Virus record (IMG/VR): IMGVR_UViG_3300035182_002586
Location: 427,585-491,584 of that record
Source of the DNA: a virus
Strand: one strand, 5' to 3'
DNA: 64,000 bases
Each line of letters begins with the position of its first letter. Position 1 is the stretch's first letter. Under the pieces are notes generated by a model. The model saw only the letters and a program-made list of their open reading frames with translations. It was not told the origin of the DNA and ran no database searches. Below, piece after piece: positions 1-63,409 of the stretch. A program made the translations under genes and the position numbers.

Positions 1-215
1 GCGTAGAACACGACCGTCTTGCCGCTGAGGCGGCCGTTCAGGAAGTAGAGAACGACCTGAACCTTGTGGCTGTAGTCGGCGCCGAGGGGCGTGATCGACT
101 TGATCTGCGCCGTCGTCCCCTTGACGACATCGCGGCCGTTGCAGCCCTTCTCGATGCGGACGCGGGCGCCAGCGGTGAGAGCGGGGAGGGCGGGGGTGGT
201 CGTCGTGGTGGTCAT
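1..215 (-). CDS. hypothetical protein (N-terminal part; gene continues beyond window edge)
   Basis: reverse-complement full start motif (GATGGATCG..GTTGTAGAGGGAAC) at ~216-252 ends on cat 213-215; N-term MTTTTTTPALPALTAGARVRIEKGC; absent from ORF track because no stop inside window. Confidence 0.5.
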   Translation of the reverse strand, partial: MTTTTTTPALPALTAGARVRIEKGCNGRDVVKGTTAQIKSITPLGADYSHKVQVVLYFLNGRLSGKTVVFY

Positions 216-269
216 GTTCCCTCTACAACGCGTGGGTGGGGACGATCCATCAGAGAAGAAGTACACCAA

Positions 270-677
270 TCAGATCCGGGACCACTTAGCCGAAGCCTCG
301 GGGCGGTCACCCTTGCGAAGCGCGTCACGGACGACTTCTGCGAACGCACGGGCCGAGGTACGCGACGAGAACCGACGCTTGCTGGACCAGCTACCGCCGA
401 GGAGGTCCTCGACCACGATGACGAACTCGTTCGAGATCGCCTGGACGTGGACGTAGTGGGTGGGGTAGCGACCCACGGTCGAGGCGCGCGCCATCTCGGC
501 GCCCACCGTCACGCGCTCCTGCTGCGCGGGAGTCATCGAGCGGTACTGGCTGCGGAGAGCCGCGAGGCGCTCGTTGTTCGCCTCGACCTCGCCGTCCGCC
601 GTCACGCCCTCGTAACCCTGGTGGTTCCAGATGAGGTCGTTGAGGTCCGCGTCCGAGAGCTTGGTGGAGGGGGCCAT
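270..677 (-). CDS. hypothetical protein 135 aa
   Basis: ORF track; reverse-complement full motif (GATGGATCG-N-GTTGTAGTAGGAGC-ATG) at ~678-715. Confidence 0.7.
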   Translation of the reverse strand: MAPSTKLSDADLNDLIWNHQGYEGVTADGEVEANNERLAALRSQYRSMTPAQQERVTVGAEMARASTVGRYPTHYVHVQAISNEFVIVVEDLLGGSWSSKRRFSSRTSARAFAEVVRDALRKGDRPEASAKWSRI

Positions 678-710
678 GCTCCTACTACAACGCGAGGCGC
701 GGCCGATCCA

Positions 711-1070
711 TCAGCCCTCGGGTGGATCTTCCTCCACCGAGCTGAAGTTCCCACTCAGGAGGGACGCCAGCTCTTTCATGGCGTCCAGCTTGTCTTCGAG
801 GCTACGGCGCGCGACCTGGAGCGCTTCGAGCTTCGCACTCTCCGCGTCCGCGATGTCCGCCTGGAGGCGAACCCGGTCGAGCCCGAGCTGAGGGCAGGAC
901 ACGAACCACACGTCTTTCTCGTGGATCCACCCGTGGATGCTGATGCGGAGACCCTTGTGCGCCACCTCCCACGCGTCCGCGCGGGCCTCACCCCGGCGCT
1001 GGCCGGGCATGTAGCTGTAGCTCGTCACGTCCTTCCACTCGGGCTTCGCCGGGGGTGGCGGGAGCGGCAC
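711..1070 (-). CDS. hypothetical protein, coiled-coil C-terminus
   Basis: ORF track; protein-like composition; start uncertain (no motif). Confidence 0.4.
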   Translation of the reverse strand: MPLPPPPAKPEWKDVTSYSYMPGQRRGEARADAWEVAHKGLRISIHGWIHEKDVWFVSCPQLGLDRVRLQADIADAESAKLEALQVARRSLEDKLDAMKELASLLSGNFSSVEEDPPEG

Positions 1071-1131
1071 GTTGATCGGGCGGGGGGGTCTTCTTGCGGG
1101 ACGCCAGGACTCAATCTCCAGAGGGGAAGAA

Positions 1132-1153
1132 GAGGGGGCGTTTCCGCCCCCTC
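1132..1153 (-). terminator. hairpin GAGGGGGCG-tttc-CGCCCCCTC between stop of 1161..1739 gene and next leftward gene
   Basis: perfect 9-bp GC stem, 4-nt loop, 8 nt past the stop codon on the minus strand. Confidence 0.45.
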
Positions 1154-1160
1154 GGGGATG

Positions 1161-1739
1161 TCAGGCGAGGACCGCCAGGGTGTCACCCACGCGGACGACG
1201 CTGCCGGCGCCGAAGACGGCGGCGAGAGCCTCCATGAGGGCCGGCTCGGACGAGACGGGCATCACGCGAGCCTTGCGCGCGCGGTCCCACGAGGCGCCCG
1301 CGATGCGGTAGCAGGCCGAGATGAACCGCTCGTTGTAGGGGGTCTTCACGACCAGGGTGTTGCCGTCGCGCTCGACCGAGAGGTCCGAGAGGCGCTTGGC
1401 CACGCGGTTCGCCAGCTTGGTGAAGCCGCAGGCAGCCACGGCGGCCGTCCAGCGGGCCACGTTCTCGCCCGTCTGCTTGAGCGCGATCCGGTGGACCAGG
1501 ACGTTCGCCGCGCGGCGGGCGTCACCCTCGACGATGGCCTTGGTGGCCTCGGGGACGTCGTACGCGAGAGCGAACGCTTCCTCAGGGTCCATGGCCGTCT
1601 GAGACTTGCTGAGGCCGTGACGCTTTGCACACTCAGGACCAACGCCACGTTCAACGGATTCTGCGTCAACAAGCTCTTTGCCGCAGCAGGCACAGTGAGT
1701 GGCCACGAGGATCGTCGCGGGAGCGTTTTCGTATGACAT
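1161..1739 (-). CDS. hypothetical zinc-ribbon protein 192 aa (HCACCG..GPEC)
   Basis: internal ATG of 1161..2060 ORF chosen because RC full motif (GATGGATC..GTTGTAGAGGGGGC-ATG) sits at ~1740-1785. Confidence 0.7.
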   Translation of the reverse strand: MSYENAPATILVATHCACCGKELVDAESVERGVGPECAKRHGLSKSQTAMDPEEAFALAYDVPEATKAIVEGDARRAANVLVHRIALKQTGENVARWTAAVAACGFTKLANRVAKRLSDLSVERDGNTLVVKTPYNERFISACYRIAGASWDRARKARVMPVSSEPALMEALAAVFGAGSVVRVGDTLAVLA

Positions 1740-1848
1740 GCCCCCTCTACAACAGGGGGAGCTAGAGATCCATCGGCATGGCGAACGATTTCCACGTGGG
1801 CCAAACACACGGGCGGCACGTACGCGGTCCAACACCAGTGTTGACGGG

Positions 1849-2151
1849 TCACCCCTTACAGAGGGTGTACCCCTTCTCCGGGGCCTTGGCCCTGAACTCC
1901 TCGTAGAAGCGGTCCGCCGCTTCCTTCCCGTCCCCATACGTGGGCCACGGGCGCCCCACGACACGCTGCGCCAGCACCTTCCCCATCGCCTCTCGGGTGC
2001 AGGTGTCCATCCCCCCAAGGAGGAGTTCCGACGCCACGGCCGGGTCCATGAGCAGCTCACGCGCCTGCTCGTCGGTGAGGTCGACCTCCATCCAGTCGTG
2101 GCACTCAGCGCGGGCAGCAGCGATGTCTTTGGGAGAGGGCTCGAAGGTCAT
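1849..2151 (-). CDS. hypothetical protein 100 aa
   Basis: ORF track; upstream GGTGTAGATCGAGGGC-ATG variant. Confidence 0.6.
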   Translation of the reverse strand: MTFEPSPKDIAAARAECHDWMEVDLTDEQARELLMDPAVASELLLGGMDTCTREAMGKVLAQRVVGRPWPTYGDGKEAADRFYEEFRAKAPEKGYTLCKG

Positions 2152-2171
2152 GCCCTCGATCTACACCGGGG

Positions 2172-2788: not shown

Positions 2789-2825
2789 GTGATGGATCAG
2801 AGCTACCCCCTGCGGTAGTAGGACC
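2789..2825 (+). promoter_or_regulatory. composite start-associated motif TGATGGATCA-N15-GGTAGTAGGACC immediately before ATG 2826
   Basis: seen directly; same architecture as ~22 other sites. Confidence 0.7.
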
Positions 2826-4745
2826 ATGAGCGACAAGATCGTCCGTGCCACCATCGACCCCGGCAGAGGGGAGGTCGTCGAGAACGATGACGGCCCGAAG
2901 GTTGGCCAGTGGTTCCACGTCAACGGCACGGACTGGCGGGGCAAGAAGACTCGCTGGCTGGCCTGCTGCATTCACATCGGCACGAACTACGCCCTGCTGG
3001 AGAGCGTGGGACGCGGGGAAACCCGCGTCCACTTGGACGAGTTCTGGAAGACCTGCGAGCCCGTCGAGAACCCGGACGAGATCATCGACGGGGCCGTCTT
3101 GAAGCACCGGAAGGAAATCGCGCGGCTCATGGGCCGCGTCCGGGAGATCACCGCGCGGTTGGGGGTGGGGGACACCCCCGCCCTGACCGGAGGGTCCGAA
3201 GAGACCAGCGCCCTCGCGCTCCGGACCGACGAGCCCGTCAAGGAGTACAAGACGGCCCTCGTCAAGGCGAAGGACGAAGACCTCCCGAAGCTCTTCGAGA
3301 AGATCAAGGACGAGAGCAAGTCGCTGTCGCACTGGATGTCGGCGAAGCTCATCCCGCTCGAAGCCGAGGCCAAGTCCCTGGAGGGGAGCCTCAACGCCAT
3401 CAAGCGCCGCATCTTCTCCGTCGAGCTGTACGCGGGCCTGACCGAGGATGTCGTCGAAGTCCTCGACGGGGAGCCGGCCCCGACCGACACGAAGATCCAC
3501 CTGATGCAGCGTCGCTGCTACATGGACGAGGAGTGCCTCGTTCAGTACGAGATCGGGGGGATGAGCTTCGACAGCATCGAGGAGTTCGATGCTTGGCTGG
3601 CACGCCCGGCCAACTTCCAGCGGATCTTGCCCTTCCCGCGAACGGTCGTGGCGTTCCGCGTCCGCCGCACGATGAAGGACCGTGAGGTTCTCACGCTCAG
3701 GGACTTCTTCGAGTTCGCTTTCGAGTCTTCGGCGAACAAGAAGACGTTCATCTACATCCGCAACGGCGGGCGCCTGTACCGCCTGTCGACGGGCATCGAG
3801 TTCGACGAGCAGCTCTTCCCGGACCTCGACGCGCAGATCCTCGCGACCGGTAAGGTCTACGCGAAGATGTTCGCGAACCGCGTGGACCGTCTCGCGTCCG
3901 AGGGAGAGTACCTCGAACTCCTCAAGCATGAGGCCGAGCAGAAGCGCCTGTACGAAGCAGCGGACGAGAAGGATAAGTGGCGGTACAGCCACAGCTTTCA
4001 CGACTCGGATCGCTACGTCGCGTACACGCCGGAGTCCGTCTACTACGACGACATCTCCAAGTACATCGCCGAAGAGATGGCGCGCCACAACCGCCTCGTC
4101 CTCGTGCTCCAGGGGCTCCTTGACCGGTCCCCGGTGATGCACCCCCACCCGCCGTGGCAGCTCTGGACGCACGAGGGCTTCACGTCCGCCCTCCAGCTCG
4201 TCTACGACAACGCCCGAGCCCTCGTGGCCGGGGACAAGCCCGACTTCGAGGCGTACCGCGCCCGGCTGAACGCCTCGTTGAAGGTGGGGTCGATCACGGT
4301 TGGCCAGGAAGTCATGTGGGAGATGGCCGAGGCCGAGAAGGAAACGGAGCGTCGGCGCCAGAGTTCTCGCGGACGCTCCTCCGACTACGAGTTGAAGCGC
4401 TACCGGCCCTACGGCAACCCGGGCCCCGGAACGCTCGCGAAGGTCACGAAGATCGCCCCCCGTGCGAAGACCTGCACGTACGAGTGGGATCGCCAGCGCC
4501 GCACCTACGACCGGTGGGATCGCAACCCGGCGCCCGTGCACGTGACCCATACGGCACCCTTCGACGCGATCCTGAACGTCGACGCGTACAAGCCGGGAGA
4601 CTTCAAGCAGTTCTACGACGATCCCCGGACGCGTGCGGAGTACCTGGAGTGGGCGCCCCTTCTGCTCGTGGCCGAGGAGTACCACGCGGGCTGCCGCGAT
4701 GTTGGACTGCCGCAGGGCAAGAGGAAGAAGGACGAGGATGAGTGA
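2826..4745 (+). CDS. hypothetical protein 639 aa
   Basis: ORF track; full motif upstream; antisense 2739..4685 ORF rejected. Confidence 0.8.
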   Translation: MSDKIVRATIDPGRGEVVENDDGPKVGQWFHVNGTDWRGKKTRWLACCIHIGTNYALLESVGRGETRVHLDEFWKTCEPVENPDEIIDGAVLKHRKEIARLMGRVREITARLGVGDTPALTGGSEETSALALRTDEPVKEYKTALVKAKDEDLPKLFEKIKDESKSLSHWMSAKLIPLEAEAKSLEGSLNAIKRRIFSVELYAGLTEDVVEVLDGEPAPTDTKIHLMQRRCYMDEECLVQYEIGGMSFDSIEEFDAWLARPANFQRILPFPRTVVAFRVRRTMKDREVLTLRDFFEFAFESSANKKTFIYIRNGGRLYRLSTGIEFDEQLFPDLDAQILATGKVYAKMFANRVDRLASEGEYLELLKHEAEQKRLYEAADEKDKWRYSHSFHDSDRYVAYTPESVYYDDISKYIAEEMARHNRLVLVLQGLLDRSPVMHPHPPWQLWTHEGFTSALQLVYDNARALVAGDKPDFEAYRARLNASLKVGSITVGQEVMWEMAEAEKETERRRQSSRGRSSDYELKRYRPYGNPGPGTLAKVTKIAPRAKTCTYEWDRQRRTYDRWDRNPAPVHVTHTAPFDAILNVDAYKPGDFKQFYDDPRTRAEYLEWAPLLLVAEEYHAGCRDVGLPQGKRKKDEDE

Positions 4746-5608: not shown

Positions 5609-5659
5609 CCTCGCCTCCTGATGCTCTCGCGCCGTTCGCGTCGGTGTACTTCCTTGATC

Positions 5660-6262
5660 ATGACAACGAAGGAATCGCGGGACGACAGCTCCGCCGTACC
5701 GGGGTCCATCGAAGCTCGACTCTTGGATGCCGAAGCACGAGCCAAGGCCATCACCGAAGAGATCCGCGCACTTTACCGTGAGTCGCGAGCTGCGGCGGAG
5801 GCCGACAAGGCCAACGCAGACGACTACACAGCGGAGGTGCTGGAGAGGGGCTACCAGGTCGGCGCTCCTCAACCTCTCCCTACGCCGTGGGAGGTCCACC
5901 GCATTGAGGCGCCCGCTGGCCGACCCATCGAGGTCAACGAGCGTCGAGGCGGGAAGTTCGTCCGCGTTCGTCCGTGTGGACCCGAGTTCGCCGGCAAGAC
6001 GTACCTTGGGGTCTACCTTGGGGACATGGCCCTGTCCGTGGGGATCAACTTCCACACGGAGACCCGCACCGCCCACATCCGGTGGGGGTCGCACAACCCC
6101 GCCATCTTCGTGCCCGACCTCGGGCGCATCGTGCTAGGCGCCGAGTCGTGGTGGGGGCTGATCAAGTCGCCGGAGGACTTGCAGACGATCTCGGACCTCG
6201 ACATCCAGTCGGTCTGGTACGTCCGCGCACTTCAAGCACTCTCTCCGGACAAGAAAGAGTGA
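5660..6262 (+). CDS. hypothetical protein 200 aa
   Basis: ATG preceded by GGTGTACTTCCTTGATC variant; ORF-track frame. Confidence 0.6.
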   Translation: MTTKESRDDSSAVPGSIEARLLDAEARAKAITEEIRALYRESRAAAEADKANADDYTAEVLERGYQVGAPQPLPTPWEVHRIEAPAGRPIEVNERRGGKFVRVRPCGPEFAGKTYLGVYLGDMALSVGINFHTETRTAHIRWGSHNPAIFVPDLGRIVLGAESWWGLIKSPEDLQTISDLDIQSVWYVRALQALSPDKKE

Positions 6263-7798: not shown

Positions 7799-8599
7799 GT
7801 GATCACGTCGTGTCTCGCTACTGCCGGGTATGCCGCCAAGTTGCCCGCGCTCAAGGACCGCACGTTCACGTTCGGTCCCGGCCTCATCATTCTCTTCGGG
7901 CAGAACGGCTCGGGGAAGTCGACGTTACTGTCCATTCTCGCGAGCTACTCGGGGTGCTGGGAAGCTGGATGGACAGCGTTCTCTTCCAACTATGTGGGCT
8001 TCAACGACGCCCCGTTCCCGCACAGGCTCGCTACCCGTGGGAACCAAGCAGAGGTCGCGTGGGACGGCACCCCGAGCTTCTACAGCACGGGGCCCGAGTC
8101 CGGGCAGTCGGGGTTCAACAACGCCCTCGAAGACGGTGGTGAGGACGCGGACAACTACCTCCGGAGCCTCCTGGCTCCTGGTTCGGCAGGCCAAGGCCAG
8201 ATCCAGTGGCTCAATCAGATGGAGAAGAAGCTCTCCGCGCCTCCGGATCTTCTCCGGGAAGACGGGACTCTACGCATACGTGGTCACGGTGAGGTCGAGA
8301 GGTCGAGCGTCAATAGCCTGTGGGGGGAGGCCATCGACGGCTTCCAGTCACACATCCGGTCGCTGCCCCACACGGGACCCGTGACGGTCCTTCTCGACGA
8401 ACCCGACGCACACATGTCGCTGCCGAACCAGCACACCCTCTGGACGAAGGCCATCCCGCGCCTCTCCGTTGGGCGACAGGTCATCGTCGCCACGCACAGC
8501 GCATTCGCCCTATGCGCCCCGGACGCGACCATCATCGACCTCCAGCCGGGGTACGAGGATCGGTGCCGGAAGGTTCTTCGGGCTCTTCGCGAAGTCTGA
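7799..8599 (+). CDS. SMC/ABC-type (AAA_21-like) ATPase 266 aa
   Basis: Walker A GQNGSGKST, signature-like SAGQGQ, Walker B VLLDEPDAHM, H-loop ATHS; GGAGG-5nt-GTG. Confidence 0.75.
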   Translation: MITSCLATAGYAAKLPALKDRTFTFGPGLIILFGQNGSGKSTLLSILASYSGCWEAGWTAFSSNYVGFNDAPFPHRLATRGNQAEVAWDGTPSFYSTGPESGQSGFNNALEDGGEDADNYLRSLLAPGSAGQGQIQWLNQMEKKLSAPPDLLREDGTLRIRGHGEVERSSVNSLWGEAIDGFQSHIRSLPHTGPVTVLLDEPDAHMSLPNQHTLWTKAIPRLSVGRQVIVATHSAFALCAPDATIIDLQPGYEDRCRKVLRALREV

Positions 8600-8633
8600 T
8601 GGATCGCTCCCCGCCTCGCATTGTAGGAGGGAC
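8597..8633 (+). promoter_or_regulatory. composite start motif; its TGA is the stop codon of the ATPase gene
   Basis: TGATGGATCG-N15-TTGTAGGAGGGAC-ATG. Confidence 0.7.
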
Positions 8634-8981
8634 ATGGACACCAACACCACCCCCGCCGCCCCCGCTCTCGTCCGCTACCCCACCGACGGCCACACGCGTC
8701 CGCTGACGGTCGAGGACATCACGGTCGGGCTCGTGACCCGTTACGTCATGTCCGACGGCGCGGTCGATCACTTCTCCGATTCCGTCATCACGAGCGTGGA
8801 GAAGAACGAGCACGGCCTGCTCTGCAAGATCGCTCGCCCCTACCTGCGGGTGACGCCGGACGGCACGCCGGTCGTGAGCTTCGAGAGTTACGAGGCGTAC
8901 GCGCACCGACTCATCGAGCGCCACGTCGTGGTGATGTACTCGACGGGCAAGCCCGTGATCAACCTCGCGACGGAGAGCTGA
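8634..8981 (+). CDS. hypothetical protein 115 aa
   Basis: full motif; ORF-track frame. Confidence 0.7.
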   Translation: MDTNTTPAAPALVRYPTDGHTRPLTVEDITVGLVTRYVMSDGAVDHFSDSVITSVEKNEHGLLCKIARPYLRVTPDGTPVVSFESYEAYAHRLIERHVVVMYSTGKPVINLATES

Positions 8982-9794: not shown

Positions 9795-10421
9795 CTACGC
9801 CCCGACCCTCTCAAACAGACGACCCCCAACTTGAGGGGCGCGCGCACGCAGCCGATCATCCGCAGTCAGCCACGTGTGGTTCGCCATCCGATAGAACTCG
9901 TTGGGGTTCGTTTCCAAGAGTAGCTTCTGCGCCAACATGTGATCTGGAGTCGGCACGTAGTCCCTAATGTGGACACAATAACGCGCCACGTCGATACCAT
10001 CTTCCACGAGTACGACGTTCATGGCAGAGCCACGCTCGATACGGAAGGTCCGTCCATCGGGGGCCCGAACGTGGAAGACGTTCTCCGCTGCGAGCTGCCG
10101 GCGGGCCTCTTCGTCAAGCAGGGCATCGAGGAGCCTCTCCGCCCGCGCCGTCGCTTGCCCCCACAGCTCTTCGCGGACTGCACGATCACGAGCCCGCAGT
10201 GCCTCGAAGTCCCGTCGTATGCCCTCGGGGAGCTGCCGGAAATGGAACAGGTCGATGGTCCACGCCCGCTCTTGGTCTCCACAGCCACAGGTGAACCCGA
10301 ACCGCCGAGCGAACGCGAAGTCTTCCGTCCGACACCCCTCGTGAACGTGGTGCTCTCGGATTGCCTCTACCCACTCCCGTAGCGCCGGACGGAGTGCAGC
10401 CACACCAGGATCGTCGAACAT
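9795..10421 (-). CDS. hypothetical protein 208 aa
   Basis: ORF track; divergent from 10457 gene across palindromic TACACCacGGTGTA. Confidence 0.6.
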   Translation of the reverse strand: MFDDPGVAALRPALREWVEAIREHHVHEGCRTEDFAFARRFGFTCGCGDQERAWTIDLFHFRQLPEGIRRDFEALRARDRAVREELWGQATARAERLLDALLDEEARRQLAAENVFHVRAPDGRTFRIERGSAMNVVLVEDGIDVARYCVHIRDYVPTPDHMLAQKLLLETNPNEFYRMANHTWLTADDRLRARAPQVGGRLFERVGA

Positions 10422-10456
10422 CGCGAGGAGATCTACACCACGGTGTAGGATGGAAC

Positions 10457-11302: not shown

Positions 11303-11336
11303 TGGATCGGAGAAGGGACCGCACGGTAGTAGGGAC

Positions 11337-17822: not shown

Positions 17823-17843
17823 GGGGGGCGAGCGTACACCTGA

Positions 17844-49529: not shown

Positions 49530-49546
49530 CGGTGTAGATCGTGGGC

Positions 49547-50233: not shown

Positions 50234-50245
50234 GGTAGTAGGGGC

Positions 50246-52206: not shown

Positions 52207-52239
52207 TGGATCGAGCCATCACCGCCTTGTAGTAGACTC

Positions 52240-52539: not shown

Positions 52540-52583
52540 CGATTCCGGATGGATCGGACTCTCCCTCGCGAGGTAGTAGGGTC

Positions 52584-52940
52584 ATGAGCCGCCAATACGT
52601 CCTCGAAATCCGCCGCACGGTGTGGGTCCTTTGGGGCTACGGTCCGAGCGGCGTCGTCGAGCATGTGGAGCCCGCCTGTACCCTCATCGACGTCGGCGTC
52701 GGCGAGCCCCTGGACTTCCCCTTCGAGCTTCCCGAGACCACCGGTACGCTCCCGGCCCCGGTCGAGTACGAGCGCCGTGAGGGCCTGGCCTGGCGGTTCA
52801 CGAACCGCGCGGGCAACGACACCGGCTGGAAGCTCGTCGAGAGCGATGAAGCCGCCCTGACGGCCGCACAGGCGAAGATCGACCAGATGCCTGTCCACGC
52901 CCGCACCCACTTCCAGAACGCCCCCGTCGTTCACTCGTGA
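52584..52940 (+). CDS. hypothetical protein 118 aa
   Basis: full motif CCGGATGGATCGGAC-N-GAGGTAGTAGGGTC-ATG. Confidence 0.65.
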   Translation: MSRQYVLEIRRTVWVLWGYGPSGVVEHVEPACTLIDVGVGEPLDFPFELPETTGTLPAPVEYERREGLAWRFTNRAGNDTGWKLVESDEAALTAAQAKIDQMPVHARTHFQNAPVVHS

Positions 52941-54779: not shown

Positions 54780-54823
54780 GGGTCGGGTGATGGATCGGGG
54801 CCGGGTCGCGTTGTACTAGGACC

Positions 54824-55015
54824 ATGACCCCGACCCTCGTTCCGGTTCCCTCGTGCGGCATGTTCGTGACGCTCGCCGACGACGGCAAGACCATCCTCTG
54901 CGCCCCGGAGAACCTCGACGGCACCCCGGACATGGACTCGCTCTGCGAGATGGACATGATCTCGGCCGAAGACAGCACGATCGCCGCCGCCAAGGCCGCC
55001 CTCGGTCTGGTGTGA
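54824..55015 (+). CDS. hypothetical protein 63 aa
   Basis: full motif GGTGATGGATCGGGG-N-GTTGTACTAGGACC-ATG. Confidence 0.65.
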   Translation: MTPTLVPVPSCGMFVTLADDGKTILCAPENLDGTPDMDSLCEMDMISAEDSTIAAAKAALGLV

Positions 55016-55185: not shown

Positions 55186-56043
55186 ATGCCCGCCAAGAAG
55201 TCTGAACTCAAGCCGTGGCCCGCTGATGGGTCGTACGTCCCCGCCGAGCAACTCGTCGAGGGCGTCCTCAAGCTCCTCAGGGACACGTACAAGCTCCAGC
55301 GCAAGGGCCGGACGGTCCCTCCCTACGTAGGCTACGGCCTCGGGACGAAGGACCTCGCCGGTCAGCCAAACGTCGACGAGCAGTTCCAACCGGACATGCT
55401 CGCCTACCACCGGGCGCGCGGCCGCGACATCCTGGACATCGCCGCCTACATGCTGCTGAACCTCGGCATCGAGCAAGGGCGACGGCTTGCCGCCGAAGAC
55501 AGCCGAAGTGACCTCCGAGATCAAGAGCTGATCGGCTACTGCCGTGGGCTTCTCCAGGGGCTCGACACCTCCGAGTCGAAGAAGGCCAAGCTCCGCGCGG
55601 AGACCGCCAGCACCCTCGACTTCTACAAGACGCGCCGGCCGTCCCTCATGGCCGAAGATCCGACGAAGCTCAAGCCCTTCCCCGCAGGCGATGTGGTCTT
55701 GAACGCCAAGGCTCGACAGAAGATCAAGGTCATCCGGAAGCTCTGGCAGGACCTCAGCGGCGCCAAGACGGCCGCTCTCCAGGCCGCCAAGGGTGACGAC
55801 GGAGGCTCCTGCAACTTCGACGCGTGCGCTCTCAAGGGCGGTGCGGATGTCGGCCGCGCCCTCCGACTGGCGGGCCTCACGAGCCGCTCCGGCTCGGGCC
55901 GTCTGTGGCGTGGCTACTGGCTGATCGATCCCCCCCCCCCCGTCAACGGCCAAGCCGCCGTTCGCACGCGGCAGGCCGAAGCCATGGAGAAGCACCTCAA
56001 GGCGCTCAAGTACGAGGTCACCGTCTACTACCAGGCGGACTGA
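55186..56043 (+). CDS. hypothetical protein 285 aa containing a C12 homopolymer (PPPP)
   Basis: ORF track. Confidence 0.7.
   Translation: MPAKKSELKPWPADGSYVPAEQLVEGVLKLLRDTYKLQRKGRTVPPYVGYGLGTKDLAGQPNVDEQFQPDMLAYHRARGRDILDIAAYMLLNLGIEQGRRLAAEDSRSDLRDQELIGYCRGLLQGLDTSESKKAKLRAETASTLDFYKTRRPSLMAEDPTKLKPFPAGDVVLNAKARQKIKVIRKLWQDLSGAKTAALQAAKGDDGGSCNFDACALKGGADVGRALRLAGLTSRSGSGRLWRGYWLIDPPPPVNGQAAVRTRQAEAMEKHLKALKYEVTVYYQAD
55930..55941 (+). repeat. poly-C tract (12 C) inside coding sequence
   Basis: seen directly: gatcCCCCCCCCCCCCgtc. Confidence 0.8.
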
Positions 56044-56077
56044 TGGATCGCCGCCACCCTCACACTGTAGAGGGAGC

Positions 56078-56314
56078 ATGACCACGACCGACGAGAACCC
56101 CGACTTCGTGTGCTTCGGTGACGTGTGCCGCAAGCGTATCGGCATCCAGTGCCAGTACAGCCGCCACTACCTCCGAGAGCCCGGGATCGGCGAAGGCATC
56201 CGCTGGCAGGGCCGGTTCGAGGATTACCACGGGCTCACGATCCACAAGGACGACGTGGAGCTGTTCGTCGAACGCGCAATCGCGTGGCGCAGGAAGATGG
56301 GGATCATCGCATGA
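56078..56314 (+). CDS. hypothetical protein 78 aa
   Basis: full motif CTGATGGATCGCC-N-CTGTAGAGGGAGC-ATG. Confidence 0.65.
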   Translation: MTTTDENPDFVCFGDVCRKRIGIQCQYSRHYLREPGIGEGIRWQGRFEDYHGLTIHKDDVELFVERAIAWRRKMGIIA

Positions 56315-56514
56315 GCAAGCACTTCGACCACTGCAACGCCAACGGCCTGGTGGACGGGAGGATCCCGGTGGGCAAGCCCTGCCCCTTCCTCGCCAAGTGC
56401 CCGATGGCAAGCGAACGTTGCCCCGGCTTCGAGGGGCAGCTCAAGCCCGTCGCCTACTCGTGCGCCGCCGCGCGAGGCTTCTCCATCTGCATGGAACCCA
56501 AGGATCCGGTGTAA
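56311..56514 (+). CDS. Cys-rich small protein 67 aa
   Basis: ATGA overlap. Confidence 0.5.
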   Translation: MSKHFDHCNANGLVDGRIPVGKPCPFLAKCPMASERCPGFEGQLKPVAYSCAAARGFSICMEPKDPV

Positions 56515-56522
56515 AAAGAACC

Positions 56523-56960
56523 ATGACCCTCCAGACCAGCATCGACCGCCTCACGGCGATGTTCACGGCCGCCCTCCTGAACGCCATCCGAGAGACCGTC
56601 TCCAACACCTCCCTCATCGGCCTCGCGGCCATGACCGAGCCGCGACGACCCGGCCGCCCGCCCCGGTGGAAGACTGAGGCCCTGCGCACCTTCGAGAAGA
56701 CCACGGCGGTCGCCGCCGCCCCCAAGATCAAGAGGGCTCCCAAGGCCAAGCCCGTGAAGACGGAGACGGTCGAGGCGTTCACCCCGCCACCGGCTCCCAA
56801 GGCCAAGCCCGTGCCCATCGTCGGGATCGTCAAGGGCAGCCTTGTCATCACCGAGAAGGACGGCCGATTCTCCATGAAGCTGAACGGCAAGCAGTACGGC
56901 GCGTCCCGCCGTCGCGACCTCGTGCGCCAGGCGCGCCGGATCGGCGTCGCCCTGGTGTAG
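56523..56960 (+). CDS. hypothetical protein with KAKP repeats 145 aa
   Basis: ORF-track frame. Confidence 0.55.
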   Translation: MTLQTSIDRLTAMFTAALLNAIRETVSNTSLIGLAAMTEPRRPGRPPRWKTEALRTFEKTTAVAAAPKIKRAPKAKPVKTETVEAFTPPPAPKAKPVPIVGIVKGSLVITEKDGRFSMKLNGKQYGASRRRDLVRQARRIGVALV

Positions 56961-56970
56961 AAGACGGGGC

Positions 56971-57192
56971 ATGAACCACTCGAAGTTCTCCCTCGCCCTG
57001 GAAGCATTCGCCATTCGGGGCGACAGGAAGCCCGTGCTCTCCCTCACCCCGAGCGAGATCCCCCCGAAGTTCTACCCGACCGTCATCAGACTGCGCGCGT
57101 GGCCTCTCATCGAACCGAGTGTCCGGTTCACCGAGACCCGGCGCATCATGGAGCACCTCGCAACCGTAGGCGCGTGCCGCCAGGCCGCCTGA
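56971..57192 (+). CDS. hypothetical protein 73 aa
   Basis: GTAGAAGACGGGGC-ATG. Confidence 0.55.
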   Translation: MNHSKFSLALEAFAIRGDRKPVLSLTPSEIPPKFYPTVIRLRAWPLIEPSVRFTETRRIMEHLATVGACRQAA

Positions 57193-58140: not shown

Positions 58141-58388
58141 CGAGGAACAGCTTCGACGTGCTATCCCGTCCCATGGGCGGGCTCAAGGTGCTGTTCGCCA
58201 AGTGCAGTGATGGGGTCGTCCACGCCTTCGGCCTGAACGGGGACAAGGTGGAGGCCACGCCTGCGTGCAACGCCGAGGTCGGGAGCAAGCGCGTCCCCGC
58301 CACCGATGCTGACCCCGCCTGCGAGAGCTGCGGGGCTGCTGCCGAAGCGTGGGCTCAAGGCGCGCCCCTCCGGATGATCCAAACCTGA
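58137..58388 (+). CDS. hypothetical protein ~83 aa
   Basis: GTGA overlap. Confidence 0.45.
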   Translation: MTRNSFDVLSRPMGGLKVLFAKCSDGVVHAFGLNGDKVEATPACNAEVGSKRVPATDADPACESCGAAAEAWAQGAPLRMIQT

Positions 58389-58422
58389 TGGATCGCCCCT
58401 AACCACACGAGGTAGAGGGATC

Positions 58423-58638
58423 ATGCCGACTGCCACCGTGTGCGCGAATGACCGTGGGGAACGGTACGTCGAGGCCGAGTGCAGCGGCTACACCTTCCAG
58501 TACAGGTCCGACGAGCTTCCCTCCGAAGGCACGGAGGTCGAGGTCGAGACCTACATGGGCATCGGGGACGTGTACTGCGCCGACATCACCTGGACCGACT
58601 TCGAGAGCCGCTACCACATCACCGCGACCGGCTGGTGA
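58423..58638 (+). CDS. hypothetical protein 71 aa
   Basis: full motif CCTGATGGATCGCCC-N-GAGGTAGAGGGATC-ATG. Confidence 0.65.
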   Translation: MPTATVCANDRGERYVEAECSGYTFQYRSDELPSEGTEVEVETYMGIGDVYCADITWTDFESRYHITATGW

Positions 58639-58889: not shown

Positions 58890-59843
58890 CTAGGACCCCT
58901 TCACCCGAAGACGGCGAATCTCCTCGATGAGCACGGGTAGATCGTCGAGAGCTTGATAGGCCGTCGCGATGTCCGCGTCGTTGTCCAGGGCGAAGCCAGG
59001 GACCCGGGCGCTGACTGCCCGCTCCGTGATGGCAGCCAGCGCTTCCTCCGAGAGCGGGACCTCCCTCGCCTTGAACCGCTCGACCTGGTAGCGACCACGA
59101 AGCTCCAGGAGGCACATCACGAGCATCTGGCAGCGAGACCCTGTGTAGTGCTCCAGCTCGTGGATGGCATCGTCCAGCGTCTCCCACCGCTTGGGGTCCG
59201 TGATGGCTTCCGCTAGCGGACGGGGCTCCCCCTCCATCGCTCTCACGATGCGCTGCGTGCGCTCCACGACGGCCGCTGCACTCGCAGGGTCGACGACCAA
59301 GGGGTGACGAATCACCACGGCGTCGAGGTTGGACGCACCCCCTTCGATGTCTTCGTCCCCGCACCCCGCCTCGCGCGCACGTGCGAGATCTTCCGAATCC
59401 GGCTCATAGTCGTCGGTGTCCGGATAGTCGGGGTAGTCGTAGTCGTCCCGGTCGTCCATGGGTCGAGAGTCCCCCTGACACTCTTCACATGCCGTCGCCT
59501 CCCACAGGTGCTTGGAGTAGACGCGACGCCCGGGCTTCCCGCACTGCTCGCACGTCTCGCCGCTCCGGTCGATGGCCTCCTTGACGATGGCCTGGACCTC
59601 GGGCGTGCCGCCGAAAGGTTCATCGGAGATCCTCGTGGGAACCATGTTGAGGGTGGCGTACTTCTCCTTGATGTACGTGAACGACGCCCCGAGCTTCTCC
59701 GCCTTCGCCCCGAGGTCCATCAGGATGGCTTCCCACCCCTCGTCGTGGGCGAAGTGGCAGTTGCCGTAGACCGTCGGGTACGCCGCGCGCAACCGCGCCG
59801 TCATCGTTGCAAGCTGCTTCGCGGACTCTTCGTGCGTCTTCAT
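58890..59843 (-). CDS. hypothetical protein 317 aa
   Basis: GGTGTAGCCCTCTACGCG-ATG. Confidence 0.65.
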   Translation of the reverse strand: MKTHEESAKQLATMTARLRAAYPTVYGNCHFAHDEGWEAILMDLGAKAEKLGASFTYIKEKYATLNMVPTRISDEPFGGTPEVQAIVKEAIDRSGETCEQCGKPGRRVYSKHLWEATACEECQGDSRPMDDRDDYDYPDYPDTDDYEPDSEDLARAREAGCGDEDIEGGASNLDAVVIRHPLVVDPASAAAVVERTQRIVRAMEGEPRPLAEAITDPKRWETLDDAIHELEHYTGSRCQMLVMCLLELRGRYQVERFKAREVPLSEEALAAITERAVSARVPGFALDNDADIATAYQALDDLPVLIEEIRRLRVKGS

Positions 59844-59864
59844 CGCGTAGAGGGCTACACCGGA

Positions 59865-60116: not shown

Positions 60117-60382
60117 CAGCCGGGCCCACACGACTGGATGTACACGCTCACCGGGATCGCGCGACTCACCACCCACGAAGGCTCGAAGAAAAGGCTCCCC
60201 TTGGGGTCGAAGGTGTTAGGGTTCGGCCACCCCCACACGCGCGCAAGTCGTGTCGCCGCCTTCCCCATGAGCGTCCGCTCGATGTACTCGGCCAGGGTCT
60301 CCCCCGGCTGATAGCACCCGTAGAAGTCCAAGTGGCTCTCCACCACAGGCTTCAGATCGAGAGAGCGGGAAGCGTTTGACAT
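60116..60382 (-). CDS. hypothetical protein 88 aa
   Basis: GGTGTAGGATCCTCTGTG-ATG. Confidence 0.5.
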   Translation of the reverse strand: MSNASRSLDLKPVVESHLDFYGCYQPGETLAEYIERTLMGKAATRLARVWGWPNPNTFDPKGSLFFEPSWVVSRAIPVSVYIQSCGPG

Positions 60383-60393
60383 CACAGAGGATC

Positions 60394-61341
60394 CTACACC
60401 GCAGGAGCCGGGAATGATGCGATCAGAGCACGCATAGCATCTTCCGCGACCTTGATCCCGTCCGCGTATACCCCACCCATGACGCGTCCGCGCACGGATT
60501 GTGTGTCGTACTTGCTGCTCCCGATGTTCCGGGTCACGTCCCAATAGGCCCACCGAACCCCGGAACCGTCGTTCAACCCCTCGCAGTTCTCGGACACCCC
60601 GATCGCCGTGAGGCTCCAACCCTGGAGGACAGTCCAGCACCCACAGAGGAACCGGCTCTCGTCCGCCATGGGGATCCCGTAGCCTGCGGCCGCAGCACGT
60701 GCCTGTGTCTCCGCCTCTTCCCACGTCCCCGCGCTGCCTGTCAGACGGTCCCGGGGCGGGCCGTCAGGTGGGTTCACGACGTGCGGCTTCACGCTCCACT
60801 CGAAGGTCTGCCGGACGGGCACACGGCAAAGAAGCTCCTCCCACCCTCCAACCGGGAACTCCCCCATCTGCACCCTATCGTCGTAGAGCTTCCGGAGCCA
60901 GGCGGTGTCCCGCATCGTGTGCTTGACCTCCACCTTCCCCGCCTCGTTGCGCCACGTCGTGGAGGCGTGCGTCTGCACACCCCCGGCGAGGAACGACCAA
61001 GGCTTGTCCCGACGAAGTTCCTCGGAGAGCCCGTGGATCAGCAGGCCGGCACGCGCGATGGGATGCGCGCCCCGCTCGATCCTGTCGAGATCCTGCGTCA
61101 GCTCAGTTCTATCGTGGAGACGCCAGTAGCTCACGATCCACTGGAGGAAGGATTCCCCCACCAGCATGGCCCCGTCCCGCACCGAGGTCCCACGGTAGAT
61201 CGCATCTCGCACCTCGGGCGGAGCCCGGCGACGCAGCTCCAAGACCGCATCACGGTACGTCGCCGGGATGTTCTCCGTCCCGTCCGCTGTCCGGTCCATC
61301 AGCGGAGCGAGAGAGTCCTCTAGCAGCAAACGCTCGTACAT
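60394..61341 (-). CDS. hypothetical protein 315 aa
   Basis: internal ATG with GGTACACCCGGAGAAGCG-ATG. Confidence 0.6.
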   Translation of the reverse strand: MYERLLLEDSLAPLMDRTADGTENIPATYRDAVLELRRRAPPEVRDAIYRGTSVRDGAMLVGESFLQWIVSYWRLHDRTELTQDLDRIERGAHPIARAGLLIHGLSEELRRDKPWSFLAGGVQTHASTTWRNEAGKVEVKHTMRDTAWLRKLYDDRVQMGEFPVGGWEELLCRVPVRQTFEWSVKPHVVNPPDGPPRDRLTGSAGTWEEAETQARAAAAGYGIPMADESRFLCGCWTVLQGWSLTAIGVSENCEGLNDGSGVRWAYWDVTRNIGSSKYDTQSVRGRVMGGVYADGIKVAEDAMRALIASFPAPAV

Positions 61342-61359
61342 CGCTTCTCCGGGTGTACC

Positions 61360-61596
61360 ATGAGGCACATGATGCCCCCTCCGCCCAACCCCGCACGCGT
61401 CCCCGTCTTCCTCGTTCTTGAGGGACTCGACGACAAGGGGGCCACGTACACCGTGGTGGAAGCATCCGGCTTCAAGCTCGATGGTGGCACCTGGAGCATC
61501 CGCAAGGGCTGCATGATCAACGTCGTGCAAGCCGAGAAGGTCTACCTGTCCAGGGGCGCCGCCGAAGCGCGCATCGAGGAGCTGCGTAAGAGATGA
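61360..61596 (+). CDS. hypothetical protein 78 aa
   Basis: GGTGTACCATGAGGCAC-ATG shares GGTGTACC palindrome with divergent 61341 start. Confidence 0.55.
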   Translation: MRHMMPPPPNPARVPVFLVLEGLDDKGATYTVVEASGFKLDGGTWSIRKGCMINVVQAEKVYLSRGAAEARIEELRKR

Positions 61597-61739
61597 CCAC
61601 CAGGGTCCAGGTCACCGTCTTCGGCGCGGCGCTCCTCGGAGCCCTGTGGTTCGGCTTCGCTGGACACCCGGTCCCCACTGCCGTCTGCATCGCCATCGCG
61701 TACTACACGAAGGAAGCACCCGTCGAGGATGAGGAGTGA
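61593..61739 (+). CDS. small membrane protein ~48 aa (missed by ORF track)
   Basis: ATGA overlaps; hydrophobic core. Confidence 0.3.
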   Translation: MTTRVQVTVFGAALLGALWFGFAGHPVPTAVCIAIAYYTKEAPVEDEE

Positions 61740-62128
61740 TGCGCCACTCATTCTCCTACCGCTTCACCCACCTCGTGACCGGGCCCTTCCCGTTCGAGTA
61801 CTGGACCTGGACAGGCAAGTCCGGCGCTCACGCGTGGAGCCGACCCAACGCCCTGTCCGCCACGATGAAGATCGCCTTCCCGAGGCACACCATCACCGGA
61901 AGCCCCACCGACGTTCGCGCCCGCTACGATGACGCGATCGCACACCTCCCCCGAGGCGTACGGACAACGATCACCGGGATCAGGGACAACGATAACGGCT
62001 CGATCGACCTCGGCACCATCGCCTGCGTGCAGGACGTTGATCTCACCGAGGACGAGTGCCCCTTCTGGTTCGAGCCACCGGAGCCTCAACCCCTGTGGGA
62101 GAAGCTCCTCGTGGACGACCCGTTCTAG
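61736..62128 (+). CDS. hypothetical protein 130 aa
   Basis: ORF track. Confidence 0.55.
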   Translation: MMRHSFSYRFTHLVTGPFPFEYWTWTGKSGAHAWSRPNALSATMKIAFPRHTITGSPTDVRARYDDAIAHLPRGVRTTITGIRDNDNGSIDLGTIACVQDVDLTEDECPFWFEPPEPQPLWEKLLVDDPF

Positions 62129-62634
62129 CCGACCGCGAACTGCCCCACGTGCTCGAACTCGGGCGGGGTCTCGATCGCCACGTACTTGCCGTCGTGGAAG
62201 CGACCGTCCTCGTGGCGCTCGCCCTTGTCGTATCGGAACCAGTACTGGTCCCGATGGAAGCCGCCGTACGCGTAGCCCATCGCGAACGACTCGATCACGG
62301 CGAAGCCGTAGCTGTACTCCCACCAGAACTCGCCGCGATCACCACTGATCGCCTCGACGGCCTCGTCGAATGTCTCCAGGATCATCACGGTCCGCGTCCC
62401 ACCGTAGCGCACGCTCGACGCGATCGTCGTCAGCGTGTACGCCCGCTTGCCCTTGAAGTCCGGGCTGAGCGGCTTCTCCGTGTGCCCCTCGGGCTTCAAG
62501 ACCGAGTTCTCGAACGCCTTGTCGTACTCCTGCTCCGCCTCGGTCCGGACCCTCGGGTCCTGCGACAGAGCGGCCGCCACGCTCGCCAGTGCGTTGTTGC
62601 TCACAACCAGCGTCGGCTCTTCCTTCTCGCTCAT
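62125..62634 (-). CDS. hypothetical protein 169 aa
   Basis: GGTGTACAAGGACCCCC-ATG. Confidence 0.65.
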   Translation of the reverse strand: MSEKEEPTLVVSNNALASVAAALSQDPRVRTEAEQEYDKAFENSVLKPEGHTEKPLSPDFKGKRAYTLTTIASSVRYGGTRTVMILETFDEAVEAISGDRGEFWWEYSYGFAVIESFAMGYAYGGFHRDQYWFRYDKGERHEDGRFHDGKYVAIETPPEFEHVGQFAVG

Positions 62635-62691
62635 GGGGGTCCTTGTACACCGCTGGATGGATCACCCCACCCCCCGCGCTGTAGAGAGGAC

Positions 62692-62880
62692 ATGGGAAAC
62701 GAAATCGTCTACATCAAGCTCCCCCCGCCCGAGAGCCCTCTCGGGGGGCTCACCGGCTTCACGTCCAAGGTCCTCGAACGCAAGAAGGGCCACGTCCTCG
62801 TGGACTACCCCCTCTCGTTCGGACACTGCACCCACCAGTGGGTCCCCGAAGCGTGGGTCGCCTGGACGCTCCCGAGCTGA
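62692..62880 (+). CDS. hypothetical protein 62 aa
   Basis: full motif CTGGATGGATCACC-N-CTGTAGAGAGGAC-ATG. Confidence 0.6.
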   Translation: MGNEIVYIKLPPPESPLGGLTGFTSKVLERKKGHVLVDYPLSFGHCTHQWVPEAWVAWTLPS

Positions 62881-62883
62881 CAT

Positions 62884-63132
62884 ATGGAAACCCCGCAACG
62901 CCCCGCTCTCCTGGTCACCGTCGACGAAGCCTCCCACACGATGCGCCGCGTCGAGAAGTCGTCGTTCCTCCGGGATCAAGGGGTCACGGTCTACACCGTC
63001 CCCTCGGAGACCCCCATCTACGTGGACGAGCGCAAGGTCCCGGCCGTGGTGCTCATGGTCCGCGCAGAGACGGACTACCTCGTCGGCGTGGGCGTCGGGT
63101 TCGTGACGCTCCTCGTTGAGGGCCTCCGCTGA
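62884..63132 (+). CDS. hypothetical protein 82 aa
   Basis: ORF track. Confidence 0.5.
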   Translation: METPQRPALLVTVDEASHTMRRVEKSSFLRDQGVTVYTVPSETPIYVDERKVPAVVLMVRAETDYLVGVGVGFVTLLVEGLR

Positions 63133-63172
63133 TTTCGGATGGATCGGTTCCCCCTCGCGCTGTAGAGGGGAC

Positions 63173-63409
63173 ATGACCACGACGACCGCCCCCGCCATCG
63201 ACGCGATGCTCGAAGTTCTCCTGACCGCGTGGGCGCTGTCGCAGGTCAAGGGCCCGGCCCCGAAGCTGAACGTGGCCTTCCCGCCCCGCCTCCAGTCGGC
63301 CCTCCGCAAGGCCCGCAAGCTCGAATACGTAACCGTCGACGATGCCGGCGTCTACCTCGACGAACTCGGCTGCCTCTACCTCGCCGAACACGGCAACCCC
63401 CAGATCTGA
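63173..63409 (+). CDS. hypothetical protein 78 aa
   Basis: full motif TCGGATGGATCGG-N-CTGTAGAGGGGAC-ATG. Confidence 0.65.
   Translation: MTTTTAPAIDAMLEVLLTAWALSQVKGPAPKLNVAFPPRLQSALRKARKLEYVTVDDAGVYLDELGCLYLAEHGNPQI

Follow-up and report, generated by a model that had tools for sequence, protein, structure and literature searches.

Start-abutting composite motifs in an uncultured huge phage as probable promoters for leaderless mRNAs

Why should many genes in one stretch of phage DNA begin directly behind the same two short blocks of sequence? The stretch at issue, hereafter the window, is the 64,000-nt segment of IMG/VR virus record IMGVR_UViG_3300035182_002586 that spans positions 427,585-491,584, and all coordinates given here are positions in it unless another contig is named. 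The original prediction had described a composite motif at about 23 gene starts on both strands, and had proposed that it serves either as a promoter for leaderless mRNAs or as an enhancer of translation initiation. We refer to this two-block element as class 1 and to a second motif, which contains GGTGTA and was found in the present analysis, as class 2. Motif positions are numbered with the A of ATG as +1. Our analysis favors the view that class 1 elements are compact sigma-type phage promoters that would give leaderless mRNAs from the ATG, a reading to which we assign a probability of about 0.68.

The motif is not difficult to delimit. A loose regular expression (ATGGAT-N13-20-GTA[GC]-N5-9-[AGT]TG) returns exactly 23 sites in the window, 19 on the plus strand and 4 on the minus strand, and nothing else. 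All of the sites listed originally are among them, with 22 of the 23 start coordinates correct and one, given as 29494, that should read 29493. Although the expression also admits GTG and TTG, every site presents an ATG followed by an open reading frame. The stricter form ATGGAT-N16-19-GTAG-N7-ATG occurs 21 times, compared with a mean of 0.005 in 200 dinucleotide shuffles, which is the randomized-sequence control that the original prediction had named. A two-block weight matrix built without the start codon places 22 sites at 30.7-41 bits. The next-best scores are 25 bits (the site at 15830, whose 3′ block is shifted by 1 nt) and then 20, while the shuffles reach at most 12.2. Because these scores are bimodal, with a wide gap to the rest, class 1 is sharply bounded, without degenerate copies and without copies inside genes. 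Moreover, the orientation of the motif matches that of the gene it precedes at every site.

A chance pattern, or a dispersed repeat without regulatory function, would leave a different trace. The observation most compatible with chance is that neither block exceeds chance expectation when it is searched for by itself with 2 mismatches; the signal resides in the combination of the blocks and in their position. (A maximal-order Markov background for k-mer enrichment masked the motifs and was not useful.) However, the composite count and the bimodal scores speak against this explanation, as do the uniform orientation of the sites and their exclusion from genes. Conservation is confined to the blocks and does not extend to the spacer or flanks: pairwise identity within the window is 36% in the spacer versus 72% at -12..-4, and a duplicated-repeat origin is disfavored for this reason. 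Since the motif is also kept in a diverged phage (see below), we consider the explanation refuted by these controls, with a vanishingly small chance of being correct.

The geometry of the sites is equally constrained. In the window, GTAG occupies -11..-8 at 22 of the 23 sites, 15830 being the one that is shifted by 1, and C-17, C-1, and the ATG are invariant. ATGGAT begins at -35 or -34, such that the G of GATGG, originally placed some 35-36 nt before the A, is found at -36/-35. For a broader consensus we pooled 37 unique class 1 sites, comprising the 23 in the window, five more on contig L134 (a leftward extension of the same genome), and nine on related contigs. These give c-c-k-G-ATGGATC-g, about ten variable C-rich bases, and then C(-17)-G-C-G(-14)-y-K(-12)-G-T-A-G-W(-7)-R-G-G-R-r-C(-1)-ATG. 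From ATGGAT to ATG, 17 sites measure 37 nt, 18 measure 38 nt, and 2 measure 39 nt, which corresponds to a spacer of 16-17 bp (18 bp in 2 of the 37) between the hexamer ATGGAT and the hexamer KGTAGW at -12..-7. Thus, the 3′ block is fixed to the ATG and the 5′ block floats by 1 bp. C is present at -1 in 34 of the pooled sites and A at +1 in all of them. The whole element, two blocks within a total of 38 bases, has no exact composite match in IMG/VR.

If these blocks are read as a promoter, most of their features acquire a conventional role. The sequence (t)GATGGATCg, with ATGGAT at -35/-34, would be a -35-like element, separated by a 16-17 bp spacer without conserved sequence from KGTAGW, which would take the place of the -10 hexamer. 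C-17 and G-14 would belong to an extended -10 region, and C-1/A+1 would be the pyrimidine/purine start pair. The positions -6..-3 are those of the discriminator in sigma-70 promoters, and the G-rich stretch found there would be discriminator-like. RNA polymerase would then begin transcription at the A of the start codon, so that each unit's first gene would be translated from a leaderless mRNA, whereas the downstream genes of a unit would use ordinary Shine-Dalgarno sites or overlapping stop and start codons. Class 1 does have two blocks separated by a non-conserved spacer of 17 ± 1 bp. It also has two properties looked for in leaderless genes, namely an element in the -10 position that lies about 6-7 bp upstream of the gene (the class 1 hexamer ends at -7) and a strong preference for AUG. 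The leaderless-promoter proposal of the original prediction fits every sequence test that we ran, including register, the 1-bp spacer float, C-1/A+1, the exclusive use of ATG, gene junctions, the lack of an RNA fold, and the comparison with relatives. A transcript start at the ATG is what we infer from this agreement.

Several observations nevertheless weigh against this reading. The -10 hexamer does not conform to TANNNT, since it has G at -11 in 34 of the 37 pooled sites, A or T at -7, and TA at -10/-9; class 1 is for this reason not a housekeeping-sigma promoter. We know of no characterized sigma-70-type -10 element with G-11 and no conserved T-7. Taking the TA at -10/-9 as the canonical -12/-11 pair would put the start 2 nt within the ATG, and the TA registers of the two classes are thus about 2 nt apart. 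The purine run at -7..-3 is Shine-Dalgarno-like and could aid translation on read-through transcripts. No sigma region 2 protein or RNA polymerase subunit was found in the DNA inspected, which amounts to about 73 kb out of some 620 kb for the whole genome (the window plus flanks of about 7 kb leftward and 1.6 kb rightward). Finally, our gene calls are home-made, and counts for genes without a motif are approximate.

In the -35 position, ATGGAT matches TTGACA only at T-34 and G-33. The consensus for promoters of extracytoplasmic function (ECF) sigma factors, GGAAC-N16-17-CGT, is approached in spacing by GGATC-N16/17-GTA, but the AAC and the C of CGT are missing. Because G at -11 and ATGGAT at -35 both misfit a housekeeping sigma factor, our preferred guess is that the reader would be a sigma-70-family holoenzyme whose specificity is specified by the phage.

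Relatives of the phage provide a useful comparison. The closest that could be fetched, L135 (Logan ERR3094293_385), has 65% G+C and encodes a protein with 65% identity to a 639-aa protein of the window, yet it lacks class 1. In its place, acacTTGACAcggcgg-N17-TAnnnn-N6 precedes a start codon (ATG or GTG) nine times, with C at -1 and the T of TTGACA at -35..-37. Judging from their sequences, these appear to be canonical -35/-10 promoters whose register is that of the class 1 blocks, and they indicate that promoters in this lineage can be built directly against start codons. Close relatives would then use different promoter codes in an unchanged register. Another relative, L002, carries gTTCGCTATAG-N7-ATG.

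More distant DNA retains class 1 itself. Among the matches listed in a metagenome scan, most were single chance matches, and the true relatives were four contigs of one other sample (L017, L020, L061, and L080) with nine class 1 copies of the same geometry. These contigs have almost no DNA that can be aligned with the window and share a single detectable orthologue, at 40% protein identity. In front of this orthologous gene in L061 (window 1739, minus strand), the ATGGATC and TTGTAGAGGGGG blocks are identical, whereas only 5 of 14 spacer bases match by our count. Erythrobacter phage vB_EliS-L02 was considered as a carrier of the motif and rejected; it uses AAGGAGG ribosome-binding sites and the motif is absent.

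When the 20 nt upstream of all predicted genes were listed, class 2 came to light. It reads yGGTGTA(G/C)-N8-12-(C)ATG, has its mode at 10-11 nt before the ATG, and precedes about 31 further gene starts. The pattern GGTGTA-N8-12-ATG occurs 34 times, against 0.5 expected. C is found at -1 in 26 of 32 sites, and for the modal spacing of 10 the TA lies at -12/-11. No conserved block was found further upstream of the class 2 sites, and no -35 block. The original picture of a single motif overlooked this equally common class, which turns one odd motif into a genome-wide design. Class 2 would do the same job as class 1 at its approximately 31 genes, and both families would together head about 50 units in 64 kb. 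The two classes probably mark different temporal or regulatory classes. Class 2 is also found in distant contigs, with 6 copies in L004 (0.63 expected) and 5 in L005 (0.38 expected), and it is present in L141 (52% G+C) and L142 as well.

The recurrence of class 2 in distant huge-phage contigs of 52-60% GC suggests a phage-borne rather than a host-specific reader. Perhaps the same promoters at the ATG are read by a non-canonical phage RNA polymerase of the phiKZ/AR9 type, in which case the 5′ block would be an enhancer or activator site. Such an enzyme might accommodate the lack of a -35 block in class 2 and the G at -11, which misfits sigma-70. Furthermore, the late promoter of the AR9 non-virion RNA polymerase, AACA-N6-T-A/G with the purine at +1 (PMC5312081), has the geometry of the class 1 3′ half, in which the tetranucleotide GTAG at -11..-8 is followed by six unspecified bases and a pyrimidine-purine pair, C-1/A+1. 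Phages as large as this one, at about 620 kb, often encode transcription genes of their own (PMC7162821). However, AR9 has no -35 block and its transcripts have leaders of 26-491 nt (PMC5312081), whereas class 1 possesses a conserved 5′ block and a sequence unlike AACA and TATG. Its two-block architecture, 17 ± 1 bp spacer, and G-rich discriminator are typical of sigma factors, and even the closest relative, L135, uses a textbook TTGACA element at -35. In addition, no gene resembling a polymerase beta or beta′ subunit was detected in the window or its inspected flanks, either among about 45 scanned proteins or among precomputed Pfam matches. We regard a polymerase of this kind as an unlikely reader, although it is the chief competitor of a phage-specified sigma factor.

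The arrangement of the genes is informative with regard to promoter function. Class 1 and class 2 together head 51 units with a mean of 2.4 genes. Among same-strand follower genes, 50 of 72 have a Shine-Dalgarno sequence and/or a gap of at most 3 nt, and most carry GGAG/GAGG at -8..-15 and/or overlap the preceding stop codon. The statement that the usual Shine-Dalgarno sequence is absent does not hold for the window at large, as many genes without a motif have GGAG/GAGG at that distance. At the 12 divergent junctions, one or the other motif is present at 17 of the 24 heads. Six of these junctions measure 35-85 bp and contain little beyond two back-to-back motifs, leaving little room for another promoter or for a leader. 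Because divergent units need promoters and these junctions hold little else, the motifs themselves are favored as the promoters. Three divergent heads, 61341 (-), 2690 (-), and 18192 (+), have neither motif, and the gene at 60394-61341 (-) has GGAG at -9; either a third promoter type exists or these gene starts are wrongly called. In the 44-64 kb portion of the window, no sigma-70 consensus promoter was found, against 1.7 expected, nor are terminator-like hairpins in excess there.

Two full class 1 sites are followed by very short open reading frames, of 43 codons at 29457-29624 (+) and of 58 codons at 19614-19790 (-). These may encode small proteins, or the promoters may serve something else.

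A bias toward ATG is expected for leaderless mRNAs, and ATG is the start codon at 23 of 23 class 1 genes compared with 54 of 81 genes that lack a motif (Fisher p = 7e-4). Enhancement of leaderless translation has been reported for CA-rich sequence that follows the start. The A+C content of codons 2-6 is 72% in class 1 genes versus 59% in other genes (p = 5e-4), although class 2 genes are not enriched. Class 1 genes open with CA-rich, Thr-rich codons; for example, those at 215 (-), 29989, 56078, and 63173 begin ATG ACC ACC/ACG ACS.

Given that the motif sits immediately upstream of start codons, it might instead act at the RNA level on leadered or polycistronic mRNAs. Its purine-rich -7..-3 segment holds GGAG/AGGG-like cores, and about half of the class 1 sites hold a GGAG/GAGG/AGGA word starting at -15..-8, the motif itself being purine-rich. 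Many sites are situated in gaps of 33-44 nt that separate genes of the same direction, where read-through transcripts would carry the motif. As originally noted, the TGA of TGATGGATC can be the stop codon of the upstream gene, as it is at 8599, 11302, 15794, 52206, 56043, 58388, and 711 (-). The start-associated sequences (SAS) of Cluster K mycobacteriophages are likewise biased toward ATG (PMC3203893). Nevertheless, when the region -38..+6 of the 23 sites was folded, no shared RNA structure was predicted, and stability was not above that of shuffles (mean z +0.4). A distance of 2-3 nt separates the end of the conserved G-run from the ATG, compared with 6-9 nt for the Shine-Dalgarno sequences found at other genes of the window. 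The translation enhancer offered as an alternative in the original prediction accordingly draws no support from RNA folding or from G-run spacing. A 5′ block about 35 nt upstream, its 1-bp float, and the invariant C-1 have no translational rationale, the divergent pairs leave little room for an upstream promoter, and L135 has true -35/-10 elements in the same place. For these reasons, we find an action at the RNA level improbable.

Another alternative overlaps with the promoter reading and differs from it only in what contacts the 5′ block. Here, the block (TGATGGATCG) would be an operator for a phage DNA-binding repressor or activator, and the 3′ half alone would be the promoter core, much like the oriented stoperators of Cluster A mycobacteriophages or the T4 MotA box of middle promoters. 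With 8 to 10 well-conserved bases, the block is longer than a -35 hexamer, and the class 2 promoters of the same phage would manage without one. The block is partly self-complementary where it contains the palindrome GGATCGATCC, which had been described as frequent but is present at only 3 of the 23 sites. Possible regulators are also encoded nearby, namely a protein with a sigma region 4 only and a winged helix-turn-helix protein (30473-30775) whose proposed identity is borne out by a domain match, albeit a weak one. Yet no regulator could be linked to the 5′ block, which sits exactly at the -35 position with a 16-17 bp spacer. Cluster A stoperators, by comparison, are not known to keep a fixed distance to start codons. 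We judge a dedicated operator to be very improbable. The GATC within the 5′ block had also invited the idea of a Dam-related role, but GATC is not avoided in the window (461 observed versus 340 expected) and its presence in the block is uninformative.

Returning to sigma-type promoters, one can ask whether their reader is encoded in the window. The region-4-only protein (51853-52206), put forward originally as a candidate, does have a Sigma70_r4 domain. However, it lacks region 2, and its recognition helix, SRERVRQIE, resembles TRERIRQIE of Escherichia coli sigma70, whose residues contact TTGACA. Because the helix keeps the residues of the canonical -35-recognition helix, the protein is a poor candidate for reading ATGGATC, and the proposal that it reads the motif is not supported. 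This protein, with an intact recognition helix (RERVRQIE), resides in a genome with almost no TTGACA. Only 4 copies of TTGACA occur in the window, none of them in promoter register, and there is no TTGAC-N-ATG class there. As a matter of speculation, the protein could compete against region 4 of the host sigma factor for binding to the beta flap or to -35 elements, in the manner of host shut-off or sigma appropriation.

A split sigma factor, with the 273-aa gene upstream of the region-4 gene supplying the other half, was also considered. The 273-aa gene has no Pfam or PHROG match and three homologues only; in the relatives different genes come next, with no linkage to the region-4 gene, and we rejected this candidate. 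When 18 sigma fragments were compared by phmmer with all called proteins of the window, only the region-4 protein matched.

It is helpful to place these findings beside known systems. The promoters of Thermus phage phiYS40 are host sigma-A-type -10 elements without a -35 element, whereas in class 1 a strong -35-like block of non-canonical sequence is combined with a hexamer in the -10 position that has G at -11. The likeness lies in the expression of many genes of one phage from start-codon-abutting promoters as mRNAs without a leader, since most middle and late mRNAs of phiYS40 are leaderless (review PMC3594737). In contrast to phiYS40, the phage described here is uncultured and about 620 kb in size.

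In Deinococcus-Thermus, a -10 element 6-7 bp upstream of open reading frames drives leaderless genes, replaces the ribosome-binding site, and coexists with Shine-Dalgarno-led genes (PMC12340547), all of which resembles the situation proposed here. There, however, the element is TANNNT and is used by the housekeeping sigma factor; neither KGTAGW of class 1 nor GGTGTAS of class 2 is a TANNNT sequence. The leaderless genes of Actinobacteria are arranged as in Deinococcus-Thermus.

The original prediction had treated the motif as a possible variant of SAS and the extended SAS (ESAS). SAS is a 13-mer, GGGATAGGAGCCC, located 3-7 bp from the start with a true AGGAG core, and ESAS, found upstream of SAS, consists of two imperfect 17-bp inverted repeats that are 4-13 bp apart (PMC3203893). 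The systems are alike in having repeated, oriented, start-adjacent motifs with ATG bias, an occasional upstream element, occasional overlap with stop codons, and an unproven function (PMC3203893). The differences are more substantial. In the window, the SAS 13-mer with at most 2 mismatches gives one 2-mismatch match versus 2.15 expected, and there is no 17-bp inverted repeat pair. The 5′ block of class 1 consists of one oriented element, 9-10 bp long, with the 10-bp palindrome as a minority form, and class 1 has a promoter geometry with fixed distances. As an actinophage origin is not supported either, we set aside the view of class 1 as an SAS/ESAS variant.

In other phages, promoter families recognized with the help of SPO1 gp28, T4 gp55/gp33, and T4 MotA/AsiA consist of near-identical, non-host-like promoters before phage genes and define expression classes. 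The many near-identical, non-host-like copies scattered before genes of the window recall these families. The SPO1 and T4 promoters, however, are not at the start codon, and no complete phage sigma factor was found in the DNA inspected here.

The sequence evidence indicates that the window belongs to the genome, about 620 kb in size, of an uncultured huge phage, because homologues of the 639-aa protein (2826-4745, +) sit on large metagenomic contigs and because parts of the genome recur as Logan and JGI contigs. Metagenomic contigs, many with lengths of 100-660 kb, encode more than 1,100 homologues of this protein, and an identical copy is encoded on a JGI contig of 620,031 bp. In IMG/VR, ten contigs (7-436 kb) encode relatives with 45-53% identity. 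It is also present in Erythrobacter phage vB_EliS-L02 and Mesorhizobium phage Cp1R7A-A1. Pfam, PHROG, and PDB sequence searches with it gave no match; its predicted model (pLDDT 77) has an N-terminal Tudor/SH3-like barrel and a long helical hairpin, with no identification at the level of fold. INPHARED contains no phage that is close to the window at the DNA level or near-identical to it. Nothing was found in favor of an actinophage affiliation, the relatives found being large uncultured phage contigs.

The window has a G+C content of 64-65% and about 130 short, densely packed genes, mostly without recognized relatives, and neither tRNA genes nor Rfam matches were found in it. The DUF444 gene (32938-34047, -) has its closest cellular homologues, at 58-62% identity, in metagenome-assembled genomes of Myxococcales, Polyangiaceae, and Bdellovibrionota, which is a weak hint of the host. 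Within 30845-34047 (-), an SPFH/Band 7 protein (684 aa) adjoins this DUF444 (YeaH/YhbH-like) protein, and a class 2 site heads each gene. Accessory genes of RNA repair or modification type lie scattered among genes without known relatives. The positions of the motif sites and of these accessory genes are collected in Table 1.

Table 1. Positions of class 1 and class 2 sites and of other features. Positions refer to the window, except for those of L135, and ATG is the position of the A of the start codon.
Feature	Positions	Strand	ATG	Remarks
Class 1	213..251	-	215	41.0 bits
Class 1	675..712	-	677	41.0 bits; 5′-block TGA is the stop of gene 711-1070 (-)
Class 1	1737..1774	-	1739	DUF6011 protein; orthologous site kept in contig L061
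Class 1	2791..2828	+	2826	639-aa protein; head of divergent unit
Class 1	8598..8636	+	8634	TGA 8597-8599 is upstream gene stop
Class 1	11301..11339	+	11337	TGA 11300-11302 is upstream gene stop
Class 1	15793..15832	+	15830	3′ block shifted 1 nt (GTAG at -12)
Class 1	19788..19825	-	19790	5′ block AATGGATCG; class 2-like GGTGTAG in 3′ half; placed back to back with 19875
Class 1	19839..19877	+	19875	84-bp divergent gap holds only the 19875 and 19790 sites
Class 1	21598..21636	+	21634	
Class 1	29457..29495	+	29493	Open reading frame of only 43 codons
Class 1	29954..29991	+	29989	
Class 1	37970..38007	+	38005	Divergent from class 2 site 37919 (-), gap 85 bp
Class 1	40672..40709	+	40707	
Class 1	42554..42591	+	42589	
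Class 1	50210..50248	+	50246	Heads five-gene unit ending with region-4 sigma gene
Class 1	52205..52242	+	52240	TGA 52204-52206 is region-4 sigma gene stop
Class 1	52548..52586	+	52584	
Class 1	54789..54826	+	54824	GTAC in place of GTAG
Class 1	56042..56080	+	56078	TGA is upstream gene stop
Class 1	58387..58425	+	58423	TGA is upstream gene stop
Class 1	62656..62694	+	62692	Abuts class 2 site of divergent gene 62634 (-), gap 57 bp
Class 1	63138..63175	+	63173	
Class 2	2149..2167	-	2151	GGTGTA-N10-ATG
Class 2	5643..5662	+	5660	
Class 2	10419..10439	-	10421	Gene 9795-10421 by public pipeline; overlaps divergent site 10442
Class 2	10442..10459	+	10457	Metallophosphoesterase
Class 2	17820..17840	-	17822	
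Class 2	18111..18130	-	18113	
Class 2	20315..20332	+	20330	
Class 2	21197..21214	+	21212	
Class 2	23702..23720	+	23718	
Class 2	25272..25292	+	25290	
Class 2	26415..26433	+	26431	
Class 2	26709..26726	+	26724	
Class 2	28513..28531	+	28529	
Class 2	32897..32916	-	32899	SPFH-domain protein
Class 2	34045..34065	-	34047	DUF444 protein; 38-bp divergent gap common with site 34070
Class 2	34070..34088	+	34086	
Class 2	34836..34853	-	34838	
Class 2	35513..35529	-	35515	
Class 2	37171..37190	-	37173	
Class 2	37917..37935	-	37919	
Class 2	39325..39343	+	39341	
Class 2	45507..45525	-	45509	39-bp divergent gap common with site 45533
Class 2	45533..45551	+	45549	
Class 2	45897..45916	+	45914	
Class 2	49531..49549	+	49547	
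Class 2	56508..56525	+	56523	
Class 2	56954..56973	+	56971	
Class 2	59841..59861	-	59843	
Class 2	60380..60400	-	60382	
Class 2	61352..61371	+	61369	
Class 2	62632..62651	-	62634	
Short divergent junctions	19790/19875, 62634/62692, 37919/38005, 34047/34086, 45509/45549, 10421/10457			19790/19875, 84 bp, two class 1; 62634/62692, 57 bp; 34047/34086, 38 bp
Putative promoter copies in L135 (examples)	7446-7484, 8188-8225, 14195-14233, 16166-16204, 20881-20919			L135 coordinates
Sigma-70 region-4-only protein, 117 aa	51853..52206	+		Pfam Sigma70_r4 E 5.6e-18; phrog_351; aligns to RpoS/RpoD region 4
RNA ligase	35905-36567	-		
Radical SAM	41534-42544	+		
NADAR	46104-47105	+		
Metallophosphoesterase	10457-11302	+		
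HGTP_anticodon-domain protein	about 24300-24667	+		

The principle of start-abutting promoters and leaderless mRNAs is already known. What is new here is the sequence of the motif, the -10 element with G-11, the coexistence of two start-abutting classes, and the switch of code between close relatives. It is tempting to go further and to suppose that a huge-phage lineage expresses most of its units leaderless from its own two-class promoter code, read by an undescribed phage factor or polymerase, with the code changing between close relatives as if promoter and reader co-evolve. We consider this broader proposal possible but doubtful. If it is true, then phage expression would be orthogonal to that of the host at both the transcription and the translation-initiation steps.

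If class 1 and class 2 are indeed promoters for leaderless mRNAs, they would map the promoters of an uncultured phage of about 620 kb, marking about 50 transcription starts within 64 kb, and would define the start codons of about 54 genes exactly. In such genomes, gene callers based on Shine-Dalgarno models would misplace starts, and the motifs would be usable as a lineage marker in metagenomes. The contrast between L135 (TTGACA/TA) and this phage (ATGGATC/GTAG), in the same register, offers a natural comparison toward a new determinant of promoter specificity. Finally, a large clade of huge phages would join phiYS40 and a few bacterial phyla, the cases in which genome-wide leaderless expression is established.

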